The notes under the pieces were generated by a model. It was not told the origin of the DNA and searched no databases. It worked only from the letters and a program-made list of their open reading frames with translations. Positions 1,725 to 57,895 of a DNA stretch of 64,000 nucleotides are shown here, piece after piece; position 1 is the stretch's first letter, and each line of letters starts with the position of its first letter. Source of the DNA: Gallionella sp. (GTDB lineage: Bacteria > Pseudomonadota > Gammaproteobacteria > Burkholderiales > Gallionellaceae); contig JAQTWT010000002.1 of assembly GCA_028689145.1 (NCBI GenBank), positions 289,533 through 353,532 of the forward strand, given 5' to 3'. Made by a program: the position numbers and the translations under genes.

Positions 1725-4700
1725 ATGCCGCAACCATCCTTCGTCCATCTCCGTCTGCACAGCGAATATTCCATTTCGGATGGGATGGTGCGCGTGGATG
1801 AGGCGGTCGCCGCCGCCAAGAGCGACGGAATGCCGGCGCTGGCTTTGACCGACATGAACAACGTGTTCGGGCTGATCAAATTCTACAAGTCCGCGCGCGG
1901 CGCGGGACTGAAACCGGTGGTCGGTTGCGACGTGTTCATCAGCAACGATGCCGACCGGGACCGGCCGCACCGCTTGTTGCTGCTGTGCCAGTCGCGCGAG
2001 GGTTATCTGCTACTGTGTCGTCTGTTGTCGCGCGCCTATCTGGAAAACCAGCATCGCGGCCGCGCCGAACTGCGCCGCGAATGGCTCCACGAGGGAACCA
2101 ACGGCCTGATCGCTTTATCCGGTGCGCATCTCGGCGATGTCGGCAGCGCGCTGCTGGCCGGCAACACGAAGCAGGCCAAACAGTTCGCGCAGGAATGGGC
2201 GGCGCTGTTCAACAACCGTTATTACCTCGAAGTGCAGCGCGCCGGATTTGCCGACGAGGAGCATTACATCCACGCCGCGATTCATCTGGCCGCCAAACTC
2301 GGTTTGCCGGTGGTCGCCACGCATCCGGTGCAGTTTCTCGGTATTGAAGATTTCAAAGCGCATGAGGCGCGCGTGTGTATTGCCGAAGGTTATGTGCTCA
2401 ACGATAAGCGCCGCGCCAAGAAATTCACCGCGCAGCAATATTTCAAGACGCAGGCCGAGATGGCGGAACTGTTTGCCGATCTGCCTGAAGCATTGCAGAA
2501 CAGCGTGGAGATCGCGCGCCGCTGCAATCTTTCGCTGGTGTTGGGCAAGCCGCGCCTGCCGGATTTCCCCACGCCGAACGGCGAGAGTCTTGATGATTTT
2601 CTGCGCAGCGAATCCGAGCGCGGACTGAGGCAACGCATGGTGCTGCTCTATCCCGACGAGGCCGAGCGCGCCGCCAAGCTGCCGGAATATCAGGCGCGGC
2701 TGGTGTTCGAGACCGAGACCATCATCCAGATGGGCTTTCCCGGCTACTTTTTGATCGTGGCGGACTTCATCCGCTGGGCCAAAGCCTACCGTTCCGAGGA
2801 ATTTCCCAACGGCGTGCCGGTAGGCCCCGGGCGCGGCTCCGGCGCGGGTTCGCTGGTGGCGTACTGTCTGCTCATCACCGACCTTGATCCGCTGCGCTAC
2901 GAGCTGCTGTTCGAGCGTTTCCTGAACCCGGAACGTGTGTCGATGCCCGACTTCGACGTGGACTTCTGTCAGGACGGGCGTGAGCTGGTCATCAATTATG
3001 TGAAGGACAAGTACGGCGCGCAGTGCGTGTCGCAGATTGCCACCTTCGGCACGATGGCATCCAAGGCGGTGATCCGCGATGTCGGTCGCGTGATGGATTT
3101 CCCGTACGGACTGTGCGACAGCCTGTCCAAGGCGATCCCGGTGGAGGGGGTGAAGCCGGTGTCGCTGAAAAAAGCGCGCGAGATGGAGCCGGAGATCAAC
3201 GCGATCGCCGAACGCGAGGAGGGTGTGCCGGAGTTGCTGGAACTGGCCGGACGCCTCGAGGATCTGACGCGCAACGTCGGTATGCACGCCGGCGGCGTGT
3301 TGATCGCGCCGGGGCAGCTCACCGATTTCTGTCCGCTGTATTGCGCCGACAGCAGCACCAGCGTGGTCAGCCAGTTCGACAAGGACGATGTCGAGGCGAT
3401 CGGTCTGGTGAAATTCGACTTTCTCGGCCTGCGTACTCTGACCATCCTCGACTGGGCGATGCGCCATGTCGCGCGGCTGTGCGGCGGCACCGCACCATTC
3501 ACGCTGGAGACGATGCCGCTGGACGACAAGGCGAGTTATGATCTGCTGAAAGCCTGCAATACCACCGCGGTGTTCCAGCTGGAATCGCGCGGCATGAAAG
3601 ACCTGATCAAGCGCCTGCAGCCGGATACCTTCGAGGACATCGTCGCACTGGTCGCGCTGTTCCGCCCGGGCCCGCTGGAATCCGGCATGGTCGAGGACTT
3701 CATCAACCGCAAACACGGCAAGGCCACCGCCGATTATTTCCATCCCGACCTGGAAGTCTCGCTCAAGCCGACCTACGGTGTGATCGTGTACCAGGAACAG
3801 GTGATGCAGATATCGCAAATTATTGGCGGCTACACGCTAGGCGGCGCGGACATGCTGCGCCGCGCGATGGGCAAAAAGAACCCGGAAGAGATGGCCAAAC
3901 ATCGCGACATCTTCGTCGGCGGCGCGGTCAAGCGCGGCATCGACGACAAGCTGGCGACGCGGCTGTTCGACCTGATGGAGATGTTCGCCGGCTACGGCTT
4001 TAACAAATCGCACTCGGCGGCCTATGCGCTGGTGGCCTACCAAACCGCTTACCTGAAGGCGCATTATCCGGCCGCGTTCATGGCGGCGACAATGTCGGCC
4101 GATCTGGACAATACCGAGAAGGTGCGTACCTTCTATGCCGATACGCTGCAGCAAAAACTGCGCGTGCTGCTGCCGGATGTAAACAGTTCGGGCTACGCGT
4201 TTTCCCCGGTGGACGATCAGACCATTGCTTACGGGCTGGGTGCGATCAAGGGTACCGGCGAGGCGGCGATTGCCAGCATCGTCAAGGCACGCGCGAGCGG
4301 GCCGTTCAAGGATCTGTTCGATTTCTGCCGCCGCGTGGACAAGCGCATCGTCAACCGGCGCACCATCGAGACGCTGATCCGCGCCGGTGCCTTCGACACC
4401 ATCAGCGATCACCGCGCCGCGCTGATGGCCAGCGTGGACGCGGCGCTGACCAGTGCCGATCAGCAGGCGCGGGCGGCCAACCAGAACAGTTTGTTCGGAC
4501 ACGACGAAGCGGATGCGGTATTGATCGTGCAGACCGCCGATGTGCCGCGCTGGCGCTTGCGCGAGCAACTGGCGCACGAGAAAACCAGTCTGGGTATCTA
4601 TCTGGGCGGGCATCCCTATCAGGAATATGCGGCGGAGCTGGCCAATTTCATCAAGGTAAAATTGGGCGACCTGACCCCGCAATTTGCCTCGCGCGCGGAA

Positions 4701-5344: not shown

Positions 5345-7054
5345 ATGGAAACATCCAATTCAACATCGCAGCCCATCGGCGCATTGTTGCTGCAACGTGC
5401 GCTGATTAATGCCCAAGATATAGACAAGGCATTGGCGTTTCAGCAGCAGTTCAAGGGACGTTTTGGCGCAATACTCGTCCGTATTGGAGCCATTTCAGAA
5501 GATGCCCTGTTGCCCGTTCTTGCCGAGCAGCTCAATTTGCCTTTGTTCGGCAGCGACGAGCTGCGTATACCGCACGAAACAATTCTGAATACTATCCAGC
5601 TAAGCGGGCTTTCACCCGCATGGTTCCAAGATCAACATGTGCTGGTATGGGAAGATGAAGAGGGCATTATTCAATGCGCCTCGCGTGACCCGATTGACAG
5701 CAATCTGCAGGAAACTCTTTCCGCGGCCTATCTGCCCCGCACGCTGAAATGGGGGTTTGCCCGCACCCATGATATCGAGAATGCGCTTAAACCCCTACAG
5801 CAAAGCTCTCACGAAGGATTGCACGATGAAATAGCGCACTTGCGCGAACTCGCCGAAGAAGCTCCGATTGTCGAGCTGGTCAATAATCTGCTATCGCAGG
5901 CCGTCGACGATAATGCATCGGATATTCATCTGGAACCGGAGGAACGTTCTTTCGTGGTGCGCTACCGCATCGACGGTGTATTGCACCTGCGCATGACTTT
6001 GCCGCGCGAGCGTTTTGATGCAGTCGCTTCGCGCATCAAACTCATTTCCAACATGGATATCGCCGAGCGGCGACTGCCGCAGGACGGACGTATTTCCACC
6101 CGCGCCAGCGGCGTGGAGATGGATATTCGCGTTTCCTGCGTGCCGGGTGTCAATGGCGAATCCATTGTCATGCGTCTATTGCCCAAAGAACGTGCCGACC
6201 TCGATCTCAATTCCATGGGGATGGAATCCGACCATTTGCGACAATTTCTCCAATGCATCAATGAACCGCACGGAATTATGCTGGTAACCGGACCGACCGG
6301 TTCCGGTAAAAGCACCACGCTCTATGCAGGCCTGGAAAAAGCCAACGACCGGACGCGAAAAATCATTACGGTGGAAGATCCGGTCGAGTACAAAATGCCC
6401 GGCATTATCCAAATCCAGACCCAGAGTGACATCGGCTACACTTTTGCGCGCGCCCTGCGTGCCATTTTGCGTCAGGATCCGGACATCATCATGATCGGCG
6501 AAATCCGTGATTTGGAGACCGCTGAAATTGCGGTGCAATCGGCACTCACCGGACATATGGTGCTATCCACTTTGCACACCAATGATTCCCTGAGCGCCTT
6601 CACACGCTTGCTGGATATGGGCGTAGAACCTTTTCTGGTTTCATCTGCCGTGCGTGCCGTACAGGCACAGCGCTTGGTACGCAAACTGTGCAACAAATGC
6701 GCTGTGCCGGCAGAACCTTCGCAAAACTTTGTCGAAGCTACTGAAAAAATAAAAGCCCGGGTTCCCCATCTGTTCCAGGGGAAATCCGCCTGGAGAATTG
6801 CCAAGGGCTGCCCGGATTGCCGGGGCAGCGGCTATCGCGGACGGCTCGGTATATACGAATTTCTTGAAGTTACCCCGCCAATTCAAGAAGCCATCATGCG
6901 TCACGAGTCGCCGGCCGGGATGCTGAGACTCGCACAGCAGCAGGGCTACCGCAATCTCCGGGAAGATGGAATCATCAAGGCCTGGCGGGGGCTTACCAGC
7001 ACAGATGAAGTATTGCGCGTTACCGGCTTGAGCGATGCCGGGGAGACCATCTGA
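5345..7054 (+). CDS. gspE: Type II secretion ATPase GspE
   Basis: Walker A GPTGSGKST, RQDPDIIMIGE, His box HMVLSTLHTN, tetracysteine CNKC...CPDC. Confidence 0.93.
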   Translation: METSNSTSQPIGALLLQRALINAQDIDKALAFQQQFKGRFGAILVRIGAISEDALLPVLAEQLNLPLFGSDELRIPHETILNTIQLSGLSPAWFQDQHVLVWEDEEGIIQCASRDPIDSNLQETLSAAYLPRTLKWGFARTHDIENALKPLQQSSHEGLHDEIAHLRELAEEAPIVELVNNLLSQAVDDNASDIHLEPEERSFVVRYRIDGVLHLRMTLPRERFDAVASRIKLISNMDIAERRLPQDGRISTRASGVEMDIRVSCVPGVNGESIVMRLLPKERADLDLNSMGMESDHLRQFLQCINEPHGIMLVTGPTGSGKSTTLYAGLEKANDRTRKIITVEDPVEYKMPGIIQIQTQSDIGYTFARALRAILRQDPDIIMIGEIRDLETAEIAVQSALTGHMVLSTLHTNDSLSAFTRLLDMGVEPFLVSSAVRAVQAQRLVRKLCNKCAVPAEPSQNFVEATEKIKARVPHLFQGKSAWRIAKGCPDCRGSGYRGRLGIYEFLEVTPPIQEAIMRHESPAGMLRLAQQQGYRNLREDGIIKAWRGLTSTDEVLRVTGLSDAGETI

Positions 7055-47766: not shown

Positions 47767-48543
47767 ATGTTGCAAGAACTGCGTTTATTTCTCACTGCCG
47801 TCCAATTTTTCACGCGCATCCCGGTGCCCGCGTGGGTCGGCCATTCCGCGCAGCAACTCGAACAGGCCGCGCGCTACTTCCCGCTGGTCGGCATTTGCGT
47901 CGGCATGCTGTCCGCCGCCGTGCTGTATTTCGGCGCGCAACTGCTGCCGCTGGCGCTGGCGGTGGGGCTGAGCATCGCGGCCGGCATCCTCGTCACTGGT
48001 GCATTCCACGAAGACGGCCTGAGCGACTTTGCCGACGGCATGGGCGGCGGGCACAACAAGGAAAAAGCGCTGGCAATCATGAAGGATTCGCGCGTCGGCG
48101 CATACGGCGTGATCGCCCTGGTACTGGTGCTGCTGATGAAATACCAGGCGCTGCTGGCGCTGTGCGGCGTGCAATCGCTGCTGTTCGCCGCCGCCGCGCT
48201 GATCGCCGCGCATTCCTTCAGCCGCCTGATGGCTGCCAGCCTCATGCTGACCCAGCGCTACATCCGCGATGACGACAGCGCGCGCGCCAAACCCGCCGCG
48301 CAACTCAGCCATACCAGCTTCGCCATCGCGCTGCTCATCGGCATCGCGCCGCTCGACCTGCTGTTCATCGCCACCCCCGATCCGTATCCGGTGCTCGCCG
48401 CCGTCGCTGCCGCATTGCTGATGCGCATATACCTCGCATGGCGGCTGCAAAAACGGCTGGGCGGCTACACCGGTGACTGTCTCGGCGCGGTGCAGCAATT
48501 GTGCGAACTGGCGTTTTATCTCGGTTTGCTGGCCGCCTTGTAA
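47767..48543 (+). CDS. cobS: Adenosylcobinamide-GDP ribazoletransferase (cobalamin synthase)
   Basis: FFTRIP, TGAFHEDGLSDFADG, IMKDSRVGAYG, GGYTGDCLGA; the true start ATG 47767 lies inside the long 958-aa ORF call. Confidence 0.95.
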   Translation: MLQELRLFLTAVQFFTRIPVPAWVGHSAQQLEQAARYFPLVGICVGMLSAAVLYFGAQLLPLALAVGLSIAAGILVTGAFHEDGLSDFADGMGGGHNKEKALAIMKDSRVGAYGVIALVLVLLMKYQALLALCGVQSLLFAAAALIAAHSFSRLMAASLMLTQRYIRDDDSARAKPAAQLSHTSFAIALLIGIAPLDLLFIATPDPYPVLAAVAAALLMRIYLAWRLQKRLGGYTGDCLGAVQQLCELAFYLGLLAAL

Positions 48544-48587
48544 CGGGCATGATGCGACTCCCGATAATGTAATTCACCATGCACACA

Positions 48588-48716
48588 CCCTCATCCCAAC
48601 CTTCCCCCGAGATAAGCCCCTCACCTCATTCCTCTCCCGCAAGCGGGCGAGGAGGCGAACGAGAAAGGCAAATTTTTAATTCCAGCGGGGGAAGGGGCAA
48701 ACGAATCGCTACGCGA
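48588..48716. repeat. Nested CCCTCTCCC-family palindromes
   Basis: Outer CCCTCATCCCAACCTTCCCCC ... GGGGGAAGGGG with an inner CCCCTCACCTCATTCCTCTCCCGCAAGCGGGCGAGG (48617-48652). Confidence 0.65.
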
Positions 48717-48721
48717 CTTTC

Positions 48722-49270
48722 ATGTTTACGCAAACCCTGTATCTGATCCGCCACACCAAGCCCGACATTGCGCCCGGTACCTGTTACGGGCAACTCGACA
48801 TCGGGCTGACCGACAGCTTCGACGCGGAAGCGGATCGCGTGCTGCGCTGGCTCCCCTCCGTTGAACTCATTCTCACCTCGCCGCTGCAACGCGCTCACCG
48901 GTTGGCCGAACACTTGGCTCATGCTCAACACTGCGAATTGCGCAGCGATGCGCGCCTGATGGAAAAACACTTCGGTATATGGGAAGGCAAAGCGTGGAAC
49001 GACATCGCGCGCGACGAGATTGATGCCTGGGCTGCCGATGTAATGGGTTACGCCCCGCCGGGCGGTGAGTCGGCGCAGCAGCTGATGCAGCGCGTGCAGA
49101 GTTTGTTGCGCGACGTGGCGCAACTGCCGCAGCAAAACATCGCGCTGGTCGCGCACGGCGGGAGTATCCGCGCGCTGCTGGCGACGATTGGCGGGGTACC
49201 GCTGGCCGACACGTTGGATTGGGATGTGGGGTATGGGGCGGTGATCGGCGTGAAGGTATCCCTTTGCTGA
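48722..49270 (+). CDS. cobC: Histidine phosphatase, probable alpha-ribazole phosphatase
   Basis: LIRHTKP, TSPLQRA, RL.E..FG.WEG..W, PPGGES, VAHGGSIR; next to cobS. Confidence 0.85.
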   Translation: MFTQTLYLIRHTKPDIAPGTCYGQLDIGLTDSFDAEADRVLRWLPSVELILTSPLQRAHRLAEHLAHAQHCELRSDARLMEKHFGIWEGKAWNDIARDEIDAWAADVMGYAPPGGESAQQLMQRVQSLLRDVAQLPQQNIALVAHGGSIRALLATIGGVPLADTLDWDVGYGAVIGVKVSLC

Positions 49271-49420: not shown

Positions 49421-49517
49421 ATTGCATAAGTTTTTTCGCATTTCAAGCAAAGCAAAATCAACACCGCCGGGGGCAGCCTCGCTCAACCGCTGGCAATTGA
49501 CCGCTCGGACATTCCGG

Positions 49518-51680: not shown

Positions 51681-51895
51681 GGCAGCCCCCCAGATAGTCG
51701 ACTATCTTCGCTCCGCTTGCACCGGAACATCGAGTGTTGATTTGCAACCTTATCAACCGCTATCCGCTCTCGCAATATGCCAAAATATCTAGATAATTCG
51801 ACATAGGTGTTTATCTGACAATCTGCATGAAGTGATAGTGCGTAAGGAAGGTATGTTGGAATGTGCCTTGCGCAGTTTTTCGCCGGAAGCCGCAC

Positions 51896-51949
51896 GTAGG
51901 TTGGGTTGAGCCCTTCGATAAACTCAGGGCAGGCTCCGCGATACCCAAC
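51896..51949 (+). repeat. GTAG REP with a CTTCGA..CTCAGGGC element inserted in its loop
   Basis: GTAGGTTGGGTTGAG[CCCTTCGATAAACTCAGGGCAGGCTCC]GCGATACCCAAC. Confidence 0.7.
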
Positions 51950-51980
51950 ATCAAAATCAACACCGCCTGAGATACAACTA

Positions 51981-52019
51981 CTCCCTCTCCCCTCGCGGGA
52001 GAGGGTTGGGGAGAGGGGG
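51981..52019. repeat. CCCTCTCCC-family palindrome (intergenic copy)
   Basis: CTCCCTCTCCCCTCGCGGGAGAGGGTTGGGGAGAGGG, near-identical to the copies at 56113 and 57057. Confidence 0.85.
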
Positions 52020-52021
52020 GT

Positions 52022-52292
52022 AAATCAACACCGCCGGGGGTAGCCCGGCAGCTAGTCACTTTTTCTTGCTTCGCCAAAGAAAAAGTAACCAAAAAGAAGG
52101 CGCCCCCGGTTTGCCGCCCCTGCGGGGTTCCCTCGATCAACTGCAAGCAAGCGGGGCTGCGGAACTCGCGCTATGCGCTCAGACAGTCCTCGCCTAAACC
52201 TCCGCCTGCTTGCAGTTGATCGAGGCGGCGCTCAGGGGAGGAAAATCAAAACCCAAAAGCAAAGGCATGGTGAGCTGTGCTCACCATGCCTT
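52022..52292 (+). mobile_element. Structured ~250-bp dispersed element, left copy (MITE-like or ncRNA-like)
   Basis: AAATCAACACCGCCGGGGG start, ACTTTTTCTTGCTTCGCCAAAGAAAAAGT hairpin, long stem, A-rich tail, terminal 14-bp perfect palindrome; inverted homologue at 53278-53549. Confidence 0.7.
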
Positions 52293-52312
52293 GAAATTAA
52301 ATGCGATGCTAA

Positions 52313-53194
52313 CTATTCAAATTCTTTGAAAAAGTCATGATTGATATCAAAAACAACTCTTGGAGTCAGCCCGAATTTAAGCTTTTCGAACATCGATACC
52401 AACTTTTCACCATCAACCAATTCTATGGGGGGTACGCCGTCCCGAACGGCCTCATTTTTTGCATCTTGGGTAAACCGTCCGGTAGTGATGATTATTCCCT
52501 TATCGGCTCTCCCCGCCATCGCTCCCCTAAAGTCCCTTACCTTGTCAGTAGAAACAACCTCCTTGTATCTCTTCGACTGAAAAAGGACTTTGAAACTCAT
52601 CAGTGGGTTCAGTTCCAAAACTCCATATCCATCAATTCCACCGTCTCCCGATTTCCCTGTAACTTTTACATGCGAAAACCCCGATTCACGAAGCAGCCGT
52701 TGGCATAACCGCTCAAATCCTTCTGGTGGAAGCTGCTTCAAAATTTCAAGAACCTGCACGCGATAGTTCTCGTCTTCTACTTTTTCTTCTATCTCTTCAT
52801 CTATTCCAAATGATATATGTGTGTCTGTTGAGGACGCTACTTTCTTCTTGTCAAAGATGCCATGCGTCTTCGAAAAAAATTCGCTAGGCTTCTCAAGGTC
52901 AATTAAATCTAAGTAATTTGGCTTCAATATCCAAACTCCACGTTTAGTGGAATCAAGCACACCACCTTTAACCAAATAGAACCTGGCCCACGCAATTCGG
53001 TTTTTTACCGTTGAGCCACCATTTTTATTTCTTAACTCAAGCTCTTCTTCAGAAATGTTATAGCGCTCAATAATCAGATCCGTAACTTCAGCAGGATTAC
53101 CTGAGCCACCCAATTCCCGAAGAATCTCAATAATTGGAACAAAGTACTTTGTGAAATCGGGGCCTTTTATATGTTTTAGTGCTTTCTTTGCCAT
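52313..53194 (-). CDS. mrr: Mrr-family (type IV-like) restriction endonuclease
   Basis: Mrr N-terminal wHTH (LRELGGSG...NRIAWAR.YL.K.G), catalytic GDGGIDG...FQSKRY, VRDFRG, LVDGEKL; AT-rich. Confidence 0.92.
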   Translation of the reverse strand: MAKKALKHIKGPDFTKYFVPIIEILRELGGSGNPAEVTDLIIERYNISEEELELRNKNGGSTVKNRIAWARFYLVKGGVLDSTKRGVWILKPNYLDLIDLEKPSEFFSKTHGIFDKKKVASSTDTHISFGIDEEIEEKVEDENYRVQVLEILKQLPPEGFERLCQRLLRESGFSHVKVTGKSGDGGIDGYGVLELNPLMSFKVLFQSKRYKEVVSTDKVRDFRGAMAGRADKGIIITTGRFTQDAKNEAVRDGVPPIELVDGEKLVSMFEKLKFGLTPRVVFDINHDFFKEFE

Positions 53195-53277
53195 TTCAAA
53201 TTTCCTTTATGAGTCTTGCGGAAGGCTCCAATGTACCGGAGTCGAATTGTTTTTGCTATCTGCCTCAATGATGTGGC

Positions 53278-53549
53278 GGGCAACTTGTTGCCCATCTGGT
53301 TTTAAGGTTTTTGATTTTTGTTTTACCTCCCCTGAGCGCCGCCGAGTAGCGCAGGCGGGTCAGGGGATTTCGGCGAGGACTGTCTGAGCGCGCAGCGCGA
53401 GTTCCGCAGCCGCCTGACCAGTCGAGCAACGCAGGGAACCCGAAGGGCGGCAAACCGGGGTCGCCTTTTCTTTGGTTACTTTCTTTTTGGCGAAGCAAAA
53501 GAAAGTAACTAGCTGCCGGGCTACCCCCGGCGGTGTTGATGTTGATTTT
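53278..53549 (-). mobile_element. Structured ~250-bp dispersed element, right copy (inverted)
   Basis: Reverse complement matches the left copy over the first ~110 nt and the GGAACTCGCGCT..GCGCTCAGACAGTCCTCGCC core; ends in an A-rich tail and GGGCAAC-aa-GTTGCCC. Confidence 0.7.
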
Positions 53550-53565
53550 GATCTACGTTCAAGCA

Positions 53566-53591
53566 CCCTTCGACAGGCTCAGGGCGAACGG
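53566..53591 (+). repeat. CTTCGACAGGCTCAG-family repeat
   Basis: CCCTTCGACAGGCTCAGGGCGAACGG; related copies at 51911 and 55283-55379. Confidence 0.75.
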
Positions 53592-53607
53592 TGAACGAAA
53601 TAAAAAC

Positions 53608-54660
53608 CTAAATCTTCCCCGATACTGCCGCCTCGGCAAACGTCGCCATCCCGTTATGCAATGCACACGCCAGTTGCAGCATCGGCACCGCCATCGCCGC
53701 ACCGCTGCCCTCTCCCAGCCGCATGCCGAGTTGCAGCAGCGGTTGCGCGTTGAGTGCGGCGAGCACGCACTGATGGCCAGGTTCGGCGGAGGTGTGCGCG
53801 AAGATCAGCCAGCTGCTGACATGCGGGTTGAAGCGCACCGCGACCAGCGCGGCAACCGAGCTGATGAAGCCGTCCACCAGCACCGGGATGCCGTTTTGCG
53901 CGGCGGCCAGATACGCGCCGGTCAATGCGGCGATTTCGAAGCCGCCCAGATGGCGCAATACGTCGAGCGGTTGCGTCAGGTTGGCCTGATGCAGGTTCAG
54001 CGCGCGTTGGATCACGATGGCTTTGTGCGCCACGCCGTGGTTGTCCAGCCCGGTGCCGGGGCCAGCCAGCAGCTGCGGCGATTCATGCAATATTGCGCAG
54101 GCGATGGCGCTGGCCGAGGTGGTGTTGGCGATACCCATTTCGCCGCCGATGAACAGTTGCGCACCATCCTGTTTGGCGCGCAACAGCGCGGCCCGCCCGG
54201 CTTGCAATGCGGCGGCCAGTTGCGCTTCGGTCATTGCCGAGTCGCGCGCAAAATTGGCGGTGCCTGCCGCGATGCGTTCATCGCGCACGTTGGTCAACGG
54301 TTCGACCGGCGCTACCGTGCCGAGGTTGACGACTTCCAGCGTGGCGTTCAGGCGTTTGGCTAGCACGCTGATCGCCGCGCCGCCGCGCGCAAAGTTGCGC
54401 ACCATTTCGGCGGTGACGGCCTGCGGGAAGGCTGATACGCCTTCTGCCGCGACACCGTGATCGGCGGCGAAGATGCTGATATAGGCGCGCTCCAGCTGCG
54501 GCTTTTCGCTGCCCTGCATCGCGGCCAGTTGCACCGCGATGGCTTCCAGCCTGCCCAGCGAGCCGGGCGGTTTGGTGAGTTGTCCCTGCCGTGCCAGCGC
54601 CGCTGCGCGCGAAGTTTCGTTCAATACGGCACAGGGTTGTACCAGCCAATCGGTGTTCAT
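53608..54660 (-). CDS. cobT: Nicotinate-nucleotide dimethylbenzimidazole phosphoribosyltransferase
   Basis: [46 protein letters not shown]. Confidence 0.97.
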
Positions 54661-55397: not shown

Positions 55398-56870
55398 TCA
55401 TAATCCGAATAACTGCCGCAGTTGTTTACCATCCAGATGCTGTTCCACCGCATCGGCGAGCCGGTCGATGTCGGTTTCGCGGCGTGCATGATAATCCGGC
55501 GTGGCCACTTCGCGTAGTCCCGCCCAGCGCAACAGCGCGTCGGTCGCCTGCCGCGATTCGAACAGGCCGTGCAGATAGCTGGCGAGAATTTGCCCGTCAT
55601 CCGAGATTGCGCCATCCGCACCGTGTTCGAGTTGCACGGCCGGATGTTGCAGCGCGCGGCCTGTGGTAACCCCGGCGTGTATCTCGTAACCCGTTACCGG
55701 CGCGCCTTCCAGCGTCAGTGTGCCGCGCACGTTGCGCAGTTGTTTTTCCGCTTCCAGCGTGGTGTTCAGTTCCAGCAGGCCGAGTCCGGCGCTGCTGCCG
55801 GTGTCGCCTTCCAGCCCGAGCGGGTCGTGGAGTTTCTGTCCCAGCATCTGCAAACCGCCGCAGATGCCGATCAGTTTTCCGCCGTAGCGCAGATGGCGCT
55901 GTATTGCGGCTTCCCAGCCCGCCTTGCGCAGGCTGGCCAGATCGTTGCGCACCGCTTTGCTGCCCGGCAGGATGATCAGGTCGGCATCGGGAATCGCCGC
56001 GCCCATCGCGACGAAGCTGAACTCGATCTGCGGATGCAGGCGCAGCGGATCGAAGTCGGTGTGGTTGCTGATATGCGGCAGGGTGGGGACGATTACGCGC
56101 AGTTTGTTTTTACTCCCTCTCCCGCTTGCGGGAGAGGGTTGGGGAGAGGGTGGCACCGCATCTTCCGCTTCCAGATGAAAATCGTGCAAATACGGCAGTA
56201 CGCCGAGCACCGGTTTTCCGGTGCGCTGCTCCAGCCAGTCCAGCCCCGGCTGCAACAGCGCCAGATCGCCGCGAAAACGGTTGATGACGAAACCCGCCAC
56301 GCGCGCCTGTTCGCTTGGCGTGAGTAATTCCAGTGTGCCGACCAGATGGGCGAATACGCCGCCTTTGTCGATGTCGCCGATCAGGATCACCGGGCAATCC
56401 ACCGCTTCGGCGAAGCCCATGTTGGCGATGTCGTTCTCGCGCAGGTTGATTTCGGCGGGACTGCCCGCGCCTTCCACGACGATCACTTGATATTGATCGC
56501 TCAGGCGGCGGTGCGATGCCAGCACCGCCGCGCGCGCGGTGCTTTTGTACTGGTGATATTCCAGCGCTTCCATGTTGCCGATGGCGTGGCCGTGAATGAT
56601 GACCTGCGCGCCGGTGTCGCTGTTCGGTTTGAGCAGCACCGGATTCATATCGGTGTGCGGCGCGAGGCGCGCGGCCTGCGCCTGCACCGCCTGCGCGCGA
56701 CCGATCTCGCCGCCGTCGCCGGTGACTGCGCTGTTCAGCGCCATGTTCTGCGGCTTGAACGGCACGACGCGCACATCCTGACGCACCAGCCAGCGGCAGA
56801 GCGCAGCGACCAGCGTACTCTTGCCGGCATCGGAAGTGGTGCCCTGCACCATCACGGTTGTGGCGTTCAT
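55398..56870 (-). CDS. cobQ: Cobyric acid synthase
   Basis: [65 protein letters not shown]. Confidence 0.97.
56113..56150. repeat. CCCTCTCCC-family palindrome translated inside cobQ
   Basis: Encodes [13 protein letters not shown] between HLEAEDAV and KLRVIVP. Confidence 0.88.
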
Positions 56871-57895
56871 CGTTCGATCCGGTTCAGCGCTTCAGCCAGG
56901 CGCGCCCACTGCGCCTCATCGCGCGGCAAGCCAAAGCGCACGCTGTGCGGTGCGTCATACAAACGGGTCAGGATGCCCTGTTGCGCCAGTTGCTTGTGCA
57001 CGTTCGCGGCATCCGCGCAGCACACCCACTGGAACAGGCTGTTGCCGCCAGAATTTCTCCCCTCTCCCGCTTGCGGGAGAGGGGCTGGGGGAGAGGGTGA
57101 GATTAAACCATGCGTGCGCAGCAGTTCCGCCAGACGTTGCGCTGCCAGCGGCAGCGCTTTGCGAGTCGCGTCCTGCCAAGCCGTATCACACAACGCCAGT
57201 GTCGCGACATGGCGCGACGGTGCGGCGATTGTCCACGGCCCGAGCAACTCGGCGAGCGGATGCAATACCGTTTTTTCCGCCAGCACGAAACCGACCCGCG
57301 CCCCCGCCAGCCCGAAAAATTTGCCGAGCGAACGCAGCACGATCAGGCCGGGAAGCGGGCAGAGCGAAGCGAGGCTGTGTTCGGGTGTGGCATCGATGAA
57401 CGCTTCGTCCACCACCAGCCAGCCGTTGCGCGCTGCCAGACTCGTATGCATGCCGAGCAATTCATCGCGGCCGAACAGTTTGCCGGTGGGGTTGTTCGGG
57501 TTGATGATGACCACGACTTGTGCGGTTTCGGCGGCGCGCTGAATCTCCGCCGCAGGAACCGTGCTGACACGGTGACCGTTGCGCCGCCAGGCATGTGCGT
57601 GTTCCGCATAACTGGGTGCGACAAGTGCTACCTGTGCGGCCGGGAGCAGCATCGGCAGCGCCTGGATTGCCGCCTGCGAACCGGCCACCGCCAGCAATTT
57701 TGTCGTGCCGTAATAATCTTGCGCGGCGGCCTCCAGCCCGTCATCGTCCTGCGGCAGGCGTTGCCAGATTTCGTCCGGTATGGCGGGTACCGGCCAGCCG
57801 TCCGGGTTGATGCCGGTGGACAAATCCAGCCAGTCGTTTTCGGGAATGCCGTATTGCCGCGCCGCGCGACGCAGCCTGCCGCCGTGTTCAAGCAT
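56867..57895 (-). CDS. cobD: Threonine-phosphate decarboxylase (PLP-dependent; CobD in Salmonella naming, CobC in Pseudomonas denitrificans naming)
   Basis: [48 protein letters not shown]. Confidence 0.92.
57057..57097. repeat. CCCTCTCCC-family palindrome translated inside cobD
   Basis: Encodes [15 protein letters not shown] between LRTHGLI and [11 protein letters not shown]. Confidence 0.88.

Follow-up and report, generated by a model that had tools for sequence, protein, structure and literature searches.

An mrr gene between two inverted structured units

The stretch analyzed here, called the window, comprises 64,000 nucleotides of Gallionella sp. DNA (contig JAQTWT010000002.1 of assembly GCA_028689145.1, positions 289,533 to 353,532 of the forward strand), in which a gene for a predicted Mrr-type restriction endonuclease lies between two inverted copies of a structured element of about 240 nt (Table 1). 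Each copy is referred to as a unit, and the DNA held between two units as the cargo. CobT homologues place the window in Gallionella, with the top match being 93% identical. The original prediction, which was made by a model from the letters of this stretch, had described inverted homologous units with a core, stems, and palindromes around an AT-rich mrr gene, with no transposase nearby; all of these features are indeed present, and neither a transposase nor an integrase or reverse transcriptase was found near the pair in the window.

Table 1. Features of the window locus. Positions count from the first letter of the window.
Feature	Position	Strand	Remarks
Truncated remnant of a unit 5′ end, 25 nt (AAATCAACACCGCCGGGGGCAGCC)	49455..49482	+	Matches the unit 5′ motif exactly; directly adjoins the histidine-kinase gene at its 3′ end
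Module C, a REP (repetitive extragenic palindromic)-like hairpin (GTAGGTTGGGTTGAGC...GCGATACCCAAC)	51896..51952	+	Precedes unit 5′ ends at many loci
First copy of the unit 5′ motif AAATCAACACCGCC, then a 54-nt palindromic insert (module G, CCCTCTCCCCTCGCGGGAGAGGG type)	51954..52021	+
Left structured unit	52022..52259	+	Subtype with a long 24-bp P4 stem; nhmmer score 220; 5′ end outward, A-rich tail inward
Module A: 14-bp perfect hairpin (52262-52292), then conserved GAAATYAAATGCGATG	52262..52309	-	Terminator scan
Cargo: mrr-like type IV restriction endonuclease, 293 aa	52313..53194	-	Winged helix and PD-(D/E)xK with D...QxK; intact open reading frame (ORF)
Cargo-specific 5′ leader with ribosome-binding site AAGGAAA	53195..53225	-	Read from the sequence; family conservation ends at ~53225
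Promoter-like part of module B (ATAGCAAAAACAATTCGACTCCGGTACATTGGAG)	53226..53259	-	Putative -35 TAGCAA (53253-53258) and -10 TACATT (53230-53235), 17-nt spacer
Hairpin GGGCAAC-tt-GTTGCCC and T-run	53278..53293	+	Outward-facing, terminator-like REP hairpin
Right structured unit	53308..53548	-	Consensus X subtype; nhmmer score 264; collinear with cobT at the orthologous locus L111
REP-like module CCGTTCGCCCTGAGCCTGTCGAAGGG between cobT and the right unit	53566..53591	-	Same module outside units at many loci

The protein encoded by the cargo gene matches Mrr_N (PF14338), the N-terminal winged-helix DNA-binding domain, at residues 14-90 (E = 3.8e-18) and Mrr_cat (PF04471), the C-terminal nuclease domain (E = 1.7e-31), and its catalytic motif GDGGID...FQSK aligns with GDGGVD...GQAK of MspJI (4f0p). 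In PADLOC, mREase_IV (E = 3e-25) and PDC-S02 were matched. With both domains found, the cargo of the window is predicted to be an Mrr-type (type IV, modification-dependent) restriction endonuclease. The GC content of mrr is 38-46% versus 57-67% in the flanks, and the cargo-specific DNA extends from about 52310 to 53225. The mrr cassette was single-copy in a metagenome sample resembling the source of the window, and a variant with 27 differences over 560 nt was found in another groundwater metagenome.

End-to-end alignment of the left and right units gave a mean column identity of 83%, with near-identity over the initial ~110 nt and at the core GGCTGCGGAACTCGCGCT..GCGCTCAGACAGTCCTCGCC. Inverted-repeat detection accordingly returned arms of 96 nt (52024-52119/53445-53540, 92%), 49 nt (52155-52203/53363-53411, 90%), and 35 nt (52224-52258/53309-53343, 89%), and three diagnostic 18-21-mers occur exactly twice each in the window versus 0-0.1 occurrences expected. 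The stem enclosing the core spans 24 bp with 96% complementarity in the left unit (52131-52154/52202-52225) and is GGTCAGG/CCTGACC in the right unit; the sequences differ, but the pairing is kept in both. The left unit, which is part of alignments A1 and A2, has its nearest copies in the loci L107 (91%) and L100 (90%), where L-numbers denote the loci compared.

Units form a widespread family arranged in convergent pairs

The genome set was collected with an exact 20-mer of the unit core and then with an nhmmer profile. The 20-mer was found at no fewer than 118 genome loci (at least 118), and the profile gave 165 unit hits among the loci listed. Most of the matched loci are in metagenome-assembled genomes of Gallionella, Sideroxydans, Ferrigenium, Sideroxyarcus, Sulfuricella, and other Nitrosomonadales, together with a few gammaproteobacteria, and the families mostly carrying units are Gallionellaceae and Sulfuricellaceae. 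Units nearly always come in convergent pairs: at every place where both neighbors can be seen, the order is a plus unit and then a minus unit, so that the A-rich tails face each other, and 52 such pairs were counted. Such pairs, together with the lack of any Rfam 15 match in the whole window at the gathering threshold (at E ≤ 10, only spurious matches to microRNA hairpins far below the threshold appeared), bear out the suggestion in the original prediction of an uncharacterized structured element family acting in inverted pairs. No prior description of the family was found in the literature by a lexical search, so that this absence is weak evidence.

In terms of content, the pairs fall into two classes: 28 of the 52 are empty, with 46-250 nt between the tails, and 24 are loaded with an insert of 748-2355 nt having 39-50% GC, in hosts of about 60% GC, and one main ORF on either strand. 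The sole exception in GC content among the loaded pairs is L007, in which an insertion sequence (IS) of 60% GC has inserted. Empty pairs join the subtypes X and Y1, which are alike in the 5′ ~110 nt and differ in the core (41-82% identity, mostly below 70%), and their linkers are built of small hairpins other than those in loaded pairs.

No unit match was found in the plasmid and phage collections searched by blastn, nor did viral contigs match the unit core or the promoter-like module B described below; the elements are hence chromosomal and not obviously borne by phages or plasmids. The genes flanking the pairs point toward the unit in 82 cases and away from it in 26, which fits either a role in 3′ untranslated regions or plain tolerance of insertions between convergent genes. 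Clustering of the flanking ORFs at 118 loci revealed no gene recurrently linked to units; only local synteny groups of at most five loci each emerged. The window locus is present in groundwater and landfill samples. In the metagenomes holding it (runs X1-X4), the summed contig k-mer depth over the units (51872-52372 and 53208-53708) was 300 to 27000 versus ~16 in the unique flanks, i.e., 100- to 1000-fold higher, and the unit family is therefore very abundant in those communities. The metatranscriptome and metagenome contigs on the window locus inform on abundance only and give no direction, excision joints, or ends.

We also noticed smaller relatives of the unit. In Thauera and Aromatoleum, the core motif alone (GGCTGCGGAACTCGC-hairpin-GCTCAGACAGTCCTCGCC with a short closing stem) occurs as a much smaller element, and core-only or partial relatives are present in L037 (3059-3096, minus strand; 3230-3333 and 6429-6473, plus strand), L059, and L109 and, as partial units, in the Nitrospirales loci L020, L078, L090, and L098. 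The unit family may have this core as its ancestral or its functional module.

The unit has a conserved, covarying fold

Alignment of 56 full-length X-type units yielded a model with nine helices and 53 pairs, in which two pairs of helices (P1/P1b and P4/P6) cross. In this model, 96.5% of the cells are paired, and compensatory double changes are found in 19 of the 53 pairs (170 cells) and in six of the nine helices. None of 500 column shuffles matched the observed covariation, and when the 3′ partners were slid by 1-3 columns, at most 7 pairs and 12 cells had double changes. Selection on structure, which had been proposed from the two stems of the window, thus holds across the family. Among the covarying positions, pair 20:34 is U-A in 31 and C-G in 25 sequences, pair 28:39 is U-A in 27 and A-U in 26, and pair 106:114 is C-G in 25 and G-C in 19; the helix 41-53:63-75 has nine covarying pairs, the helix 134-142:192-200 appears as CUGG/CCAG, CAAG/CUUG, and ACGG/CCGU, and the long-range pair 93:228 changes from C-G to U-A in five of five variant sequences. 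By eye, furthermore, the core apical hairpin varies in length and sequence across subtypes with the flanking AACUCGC...GCUCARACAG kept, and the 3-bp helix beside the core motif switches among GGA/UCC, GCA/UGC, and AUA/UAU. The core helix 144-148:173-177 given by RNAalifold was replaced in the model by 150-152:176-178, which is compensatory across these subtypes (GGA/TCC, GCA/TGC, and ATA/TAT), and a pseudoknot with the P2 loop (57-61:85-89) had no double-change support. The unit would accordingly fold into a conserved multi-helix structure, either as RNA or as single-stranded DNA, which may include pseudoknots.

As to which strand folds, wobble counts and minimum free energies give conflicting answers. 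Overall, G.T wobbles (189) exceed A.C wobbles (32), the excess coming from three invariant positions and one pair of the unsupported pseudoknot; in the covarying pairs, by our own tally, A.C (24) exceeds G.T (5), mostly at one pair. The minimum free energy is better for the reverse complement in 112 of 118 units, that strand being G+T-rich. Unit-like sequences also occur in metatranscriptome assemblies, the contigs of which are unstranded and may include carried-over DNA.

Helix P2 is followed by an A-rich stretch that mirrors its purine strand (columns 46-53, 63-70, and 77-84 of alignment A2; 52065-52105 in the window). By eye, the single G of this stretch shifts together with the G-C pair of P2 in four variants (e.g., AAGAAAAA/AAAAAGAA versus AAAAGAAA/AAAGAAAA), which is the pattern that a triple-helix contact would give.

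A promoter-like module and terminators border the cargo

On the 5′ side of the cargo in loaded pairs, next to the tail comes GGTGGGCAAC-AA-GTTGCCCACC, a hairpin resembling a terminator of outward transcription, and about 14 nt beyond it ATAGGCAAAACAATTCGACTCCGGTACATTGGAG, which holds a plausible sigma-70 promoter, TAGGCA-N17-TACATT. In the unbiased genome set, this shared promoter-like module of ~35 nt was found in about half of the loaded pairs. Module B is conserved 5′ of about 60 different cargos, and in its 64 non-identical copies, conservation is near-complete up to TACATT, decays across the next 7-10 nt, and is random thereafter. Given that conservation ends 7-10 nt past TACATT, cargo-specific DNA starts approximately at the predicted transcription start. 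We infer from this arrangement that module B acts as the promoter of the cargo.

On the 3′ side, the stop codon is followed within 0-30 nt (in some cases up to about 100 nt) by a REP-like hairpin, most commonly GTAGGGTGGGCAC-N4-GTGCCCACCCTAC, and then by the tail, so that in most loaded pairs the cargo ends at a REP-like hairpin with the unit tail serving as the T-run. In the window, module A on the minus strand together with a T-run from the complement of the unit tail is the predicted intrinsic terminator of mrr, and its hairpin and the next 16 nt are common to L021, L107, L080, and L070, all of which have other cargo. The cassette therefore has a direction, with module B upstream of the cargo and terminators downstream. 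The original prediction had regarded the two small palindromes of the window as the ends of the elements; both exist, but they are not equivalent, as one belongs to the mrr terminator and the other is the outward-facing hairpin upstream of module B. Of 22 loaded pairs, 12 have hairpins of the GGGCA(A)C...G(T)TGCCC family on both sides of the cargo and another 7 have them on a single side; among 25 empty pairs, the family was found in only 1.

The cargo is hypervariable and rich in defense domains

None of the 24 cargo ORFs of the genome pairs has detectable similarity to another (24/24). A metagenome scan with the conserved module beside the mrr start yielded 67 further loci, 63 of which have a unit immediately upstream of the module and a cargo ORF beginning 18-170 nt downstream of it; if their contigs extend far enough, an inverted unit comes 660-2270 nt downstream. 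The 71 cargo ORFs from genomes and metagenomes form 62 clusters, and five of the nine multi-member clusters consist of identical sequences from overlapping assemblies.

Domain searches with Pfam and PADLOC were performed on 60 cargo representatives. Pfam matches are Mrr_cat/Mrr_N, PIN_8, PIN_12, TIR_2/TIR, RES, AbiJ_NTD4, Cap15_CD_rec, SLFN_AlbA_2, DUF2971, DUF4145, DUF4238, RelA_SpoT, AAA_15/AAA_21, HNH_5, KilA-N, Trypsin_2, and DnaB_C. In PADLOC, the cargos matched ThsB, 2TM effectors, BstA, PtuA/AriA-like ATPases, mREase_IV, and HEC-04, as well as the single-gene candidates PDC-S02, S31, S33, S66, and S67 (E down to 1e-104). Recognized defense or abortive-infection domains are present in at least a third of the cargos, and many others are small proteins with no Pfam match. 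The predicted defense bias of the genes between the pairs is hence real at the level of domain content, and the cargo would be dominated by single-gene proteins of anti-phage or abortive-infection type.

Units stay at their sites in relatives while the cargo changes

The units are long-lived residents of their sites and are collinear with the flanking genes across species. Five loci with common flanking genes (L029, L036, L056, L058, and L102) carry five different cargos. In L047, L076, and L116, a flanking gene is collinear through the outer unit at ~80% identity, and the sequences diverge at the tail, where L047 has a cargo and L076 a linker. At the site of the window itself, homology with L111 (window 53303-54639) covers cobD, cobT, and the adjacent unit and stops at the tail at 53303; the cobT-proximal site of L111 holds a 328-aa DUF2971 protein in place of Mrr between the same units. 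L009 and L134, on the other hand, share both the site and the cargo, with identities of 79% in the cargo and 80% in the flanks; since this cargo has diverged like its flanks, cassettes can be inherited vertically for long periods. Between L009 and L047, the core-cargo-core segment is flipped, an outcome to be expected if the inverted units recombined through their near-identical 5′ halves. The units at orthologous sites are nonetheless not each other's closest relatives, and more distant Mrr homologues (86% and 77%) are found without units.

The site next to cobT was also traced in relatives lacking the element. In L195-L197, whose CobT is 83% identical, cobT, cobC, and cobS are on one strand, cobT and cobC overlap (TAATG), and no element is present; this arrangement is the empty ancestral state of the window site. 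The window differs in that its cobC-like gene (48722-49270) and cobT occupy opposite strands, with the histidine-kinase gene and the pair lying between them. The strand of the cobC-like gene being reversed relative to the relatives, the cob operon has been broken at the site now holding the element; no inverted repeats flank the cobC-like gene in the window. L014 is collinear with the window over the cobC-like stretch (compared region, 47785-49270) and has a complete unit directly after its cobC homologue with no kinase gene, and the remnant at 49455 aligns to the start of that unit. It follows that the 2.4-kb kinase segment of the window lies between two copies of the unit 5′ motif.

Surroundings of the pair

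Among the neighbors, Pfam identifies a hybrid histidine kinase, CobT, and a His_Phos_1 (CobC-like) protein; for other ORFs nearby, synteny with relatives indicates cobU, cobQ, and an aminotransferase gene. No tRNA or tmRNA gene that could be an integration target was found in the 64-kb window, and no cobalamin riboswitch was detected in it with Rfam at the gathering threshold despite the cob gene cluster. A small palindrome of similar kind (CTCTCCCGCTTGCGGGAGAGGG) is in frame at 56115-56138 in the cobQ-like ORF and at 57060-57083 in the adjacent aminotransferase-like ORF, where it is apparently tolerated as a short peptide insert.

Outside the left unit, the motif AAATCAACACCGCC recurs at 52022, which makes a 14-nt duplication around module G; the same insert and duplication are found in L107 (about 4580-4650). 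Module C lies directly outside units also in L021, L060, L102, L076, and L036. Duplication of the unit 5′ motif or the P1 hairpin around inserted REP-like modules was furthermore observed in L103, L030, L047, L075, and L011, and the unit 5′ end looks like a hotspot of insertion or recombination in its own right.

Discussion

We favor, with about even confidence, the reading that the resident pair of structured repeats is a landing pad for exchanged single-gene defense cassettes, of which mrr is one. Each such holder is built of two convergent ~240-nt units and lies between genes, in most cases downstream of its neighbors; what separates the A-rich tails is a short linker made up of small hairpins or else a single cassette with one gene. 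Such a pair would provide an insulated and expression-ready landing pad, and cassettes would be swapped by recombination in the conserved arms, namely units, tails, and the hairpins beside the cargo, with either another copy or DNA entering the cell as the partner; the pair as a whole would not transpose in such an exchange. The inverted units could also recombine through their near-identical 5′ halves, which would flip the core, cargo, and core together. Of what may keep the fold conserved, the likeliest candidates are that a trans-acting enzyme recognizes it and that it acts in the flanking genes' 3′ untranslated regions.

Several points weigh against exchange at a resident pair. No exchange event, circle, or recombinase was observed, and recombination is deduced from comparative anatomy; the cargo is assigned to defense by domain matches only. 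Empty pairs, which have different subtypes and linkers, are not simply loaded pairs minus the cargo. In another organism (L119), an unrelated site between icd and cspD/clpS holds a 90%-identical Mrr (84% at the DNA level across 1064 nt), and this mrr copy keeps only the module B promoter part, its terminator, the tail, and a 75-nt piece of a unit; the left half-element of the window, including the nested 54-nt insert, recurs at 90.5% identity in L107 in another context and with other cargo; the two cases indicate some movement between sites. Homologous exchange alone, furthermore, offers no explanation for more than 60 unrelated ORFs joined at one point to one promoter module. The precision of this junction points to a site-specific or otherwise exact process, and cassettes derived from transcripts are in play, as the DNA specific to each cargo spans the stretch between the predicted transcription start and the terminator. 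We thus also consider, as a rather doubtful possibility, a cassette system without its own integrase, in which a folded, possibly pseudoknotted module of ~240 nt, present in inverted pairs at many places on the chromosome, is recognized by a trans-acting enzyme that installs promoter-to-terminator cassettes, yielding for Gallionellaceae and relatives a distributed, expression-ready bank that consists of single-gene defenses against phages.

In the original prediction, the pair was proposed to act as a shuttle that picks up the gene and carries it along. A classical mobile pair would be a non-autonomous transposon (a MITE, for miniature inverted-repeat transposable element, or a mobile insertion cassette, MIC), namely a pair with terminal inverted repeats of ~240-290 bp mobilized in trans with the cargo as passengers. 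The terminal-inverted-repeat architecture, the many copies at many sites, and the unit k-mer depth in metagenomes would suit such an element, as would the left half-element in L107, the units at orthologous sites not being closest relatives, and the pair flipped at one orthologous site (L009 versus L047). Inspection of about 120 units, however, revealed no target-site duplication at the outer ends, although no clean empty-versus-filled pair was available for a strict test, and the outer flanks are often inverted REP modules. No autonomous copy with the same ends was found in the 71 loaded copies or in the flanks of 118 loci, nor does any of these loaded copies have a transposase belonging to the element. 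The IS4/Tn5-like transposase (444 aa) of L007 was considered as an autonomous master and rejected, since it belongs to an independent IS (L007, 1950-3437) that has its own 19-bp ends (CTACCGTATGCACACATCT) and sits in the loop of a small inner palindrome at the center of an otherwise empty Sulfuricella pair. The outer unit is, moreover, collinear with the flanking gene across species, with homology breaking at the tail and only the inner cargo differing, and the arms of empty pairs are different subtypes of mostly below 70% identity. With no target duplications, no autonomous copy, and units collinear with the flanks, the transposon reading is weakened and in our view unlikely; the other suggestion in the original prediction, a repeated element marking an integration hotspot, fits better than a shuttle. 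Of the findings that would have counted against the original prediction, most did not turn up: no Rfam family matched, and at this site L111 has another cargo between the same units.

We also regard as improbable an integron-like or HUH/RAYT-like (RAYT, REP-associated tyrosine transposase) site-specific system acting on folded single-stranded DNA, in which the units or the REP-type hairpins (GGTGGGCA(A)C...G(T)TGCCCACC, often with a GTAG foot) would be the recombination sites for promoter-ORF cassettes. It would account for the precise 5′ junction at the end of the promoter module, which closes in a small hairpin, CTCC-GGTACATT-GGAG, for the hairpin family that brackets loaded cargos and is nearly absent from empty pairs, and for the unit 5′ motif or P1 hairpin duplicated around inserts (49455, 51954, and 52022 in the window; L107, L103, L030, L047, and L075), and strong covariation is a signature of sites that are recognized in folded form, such as attC or REP. 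However, neither an integrase gene nor an Xer-like, HUH, or RAYT one was found beside any of the ~185 loci or among the cargo Pfam matches listed; the 3′ hairpins come from several families, each site has one cassette and no array, and no circular or excised form was observed among the contigs. A cis-acting structured RNA, like a giant REP or bacterial interspersed mosaic element (BIME), that stabilizes or insulates the flanking 3′ untranslated regions and only marks permissive intergenic sites at which foreign genes build up appears decidedly unlikely. The prevailing orientation of the outer genes toward the unit, the covariation with its long-range pair and possible pseudoknots, the unit-like sequences in metatranscriptome assemblies, and the hairpin and T-run terminators pointing outward from the cargo are consistent with it; the evidence on the strand is conflicting, including the energies favoring the opposite strand, the metatranscriptome contigs are unstranded with possible DNA carry-over, and such a role leaves the obligatory convergent pairing, the shared promoter module, and the precise cassette junctions unexplained.

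The element lacks at least one defining feature of each known family that could be checked. Mobile insertion cassettes and cargo-carrying MITEs such as MIC231 of Bacillus cereus likewise have inverted terminal repeats around passengers, no transposase inside, and many copies, but their ends are transposase-binding sequences of 20-50 bp, whereas the repeats here are ~240 nt long, structured, and covarying, have no detected target duplication or cognate IS, and stay at orthologous sites while the cargo changes. The REP/BIME/REPIN elements with RAYT are similar in being intergenic palindromic repeats at gene 3′ ends that form inverted doublets of two subtypes with specific linkers, persist vertically, and show hairpin covariation, with GTAG-footed hairpins nearby; the present units, in contrast, are about seven times longer than a REP unit (20-40 nt) and have nine helices, possible pseudoknots, and genes in the center, and Y1_Tnp, the RAYT domain, is not among the cargo Pfam matches listed. 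The cassettes of sedentary chromosomal integrons in Vibrio resemble the cargo in being hypervariable, single-ORF, AT-biased, and defense-rich, with precise joints by folded hairpins and a shared promoter logic. Unlike integrons, nonetheless, the loci have no IntI, attI, or attC and no integrase in the flanks; the elements are inverted and not direct, one cassette occupies each of many dispersed sites instead of one array, the promoter module lies with each cassette, and the hairpins, as read from their sequences, are without RYYYAAC/GTTRRRY cores. The pdif (XerC/D) modules of Acinetobacter plasmids also have cargo bounded by inverted copies of a recombination site and no dedicated recombinase gene, but they are 28-bp Xer sites on plasmids, and the elements here are chromosomal; no dif-like motif was noticed by eye, without a formal search. 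In the minimal mobile elements of Neisseria and in defense hotspots, finally, different cassettes occupy one site between conserved flanks and exchange is thought to be by homologous recombination; here, the arms are a portable, multi-copy structured repeat instead of unique core genes, and the cassettes share a promoter and terminators.

If exchange of cassettes at resident pairs is correct, bacteria would have a third way to keep exchangeable banks of small defense genes, beside integrons and phage or satellite hotspots, and this bank would be dispersed over many chromosomal sites and built on a structured repeat and not on a recombinase platform. The unit is a large new structured element with strong covariation and no match in Rfam 15, and its precise junction between promoter and cassette makes the assembly of promoter-linked single-gene cassettes a directly testable question. 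About 60 compact and mostly uncharacterized candidate defense genes are thereby provided together with their natural promoter and terminator context, and their carriers are environmentally important and hard-to-culture oxidizers of iron and sulfur.

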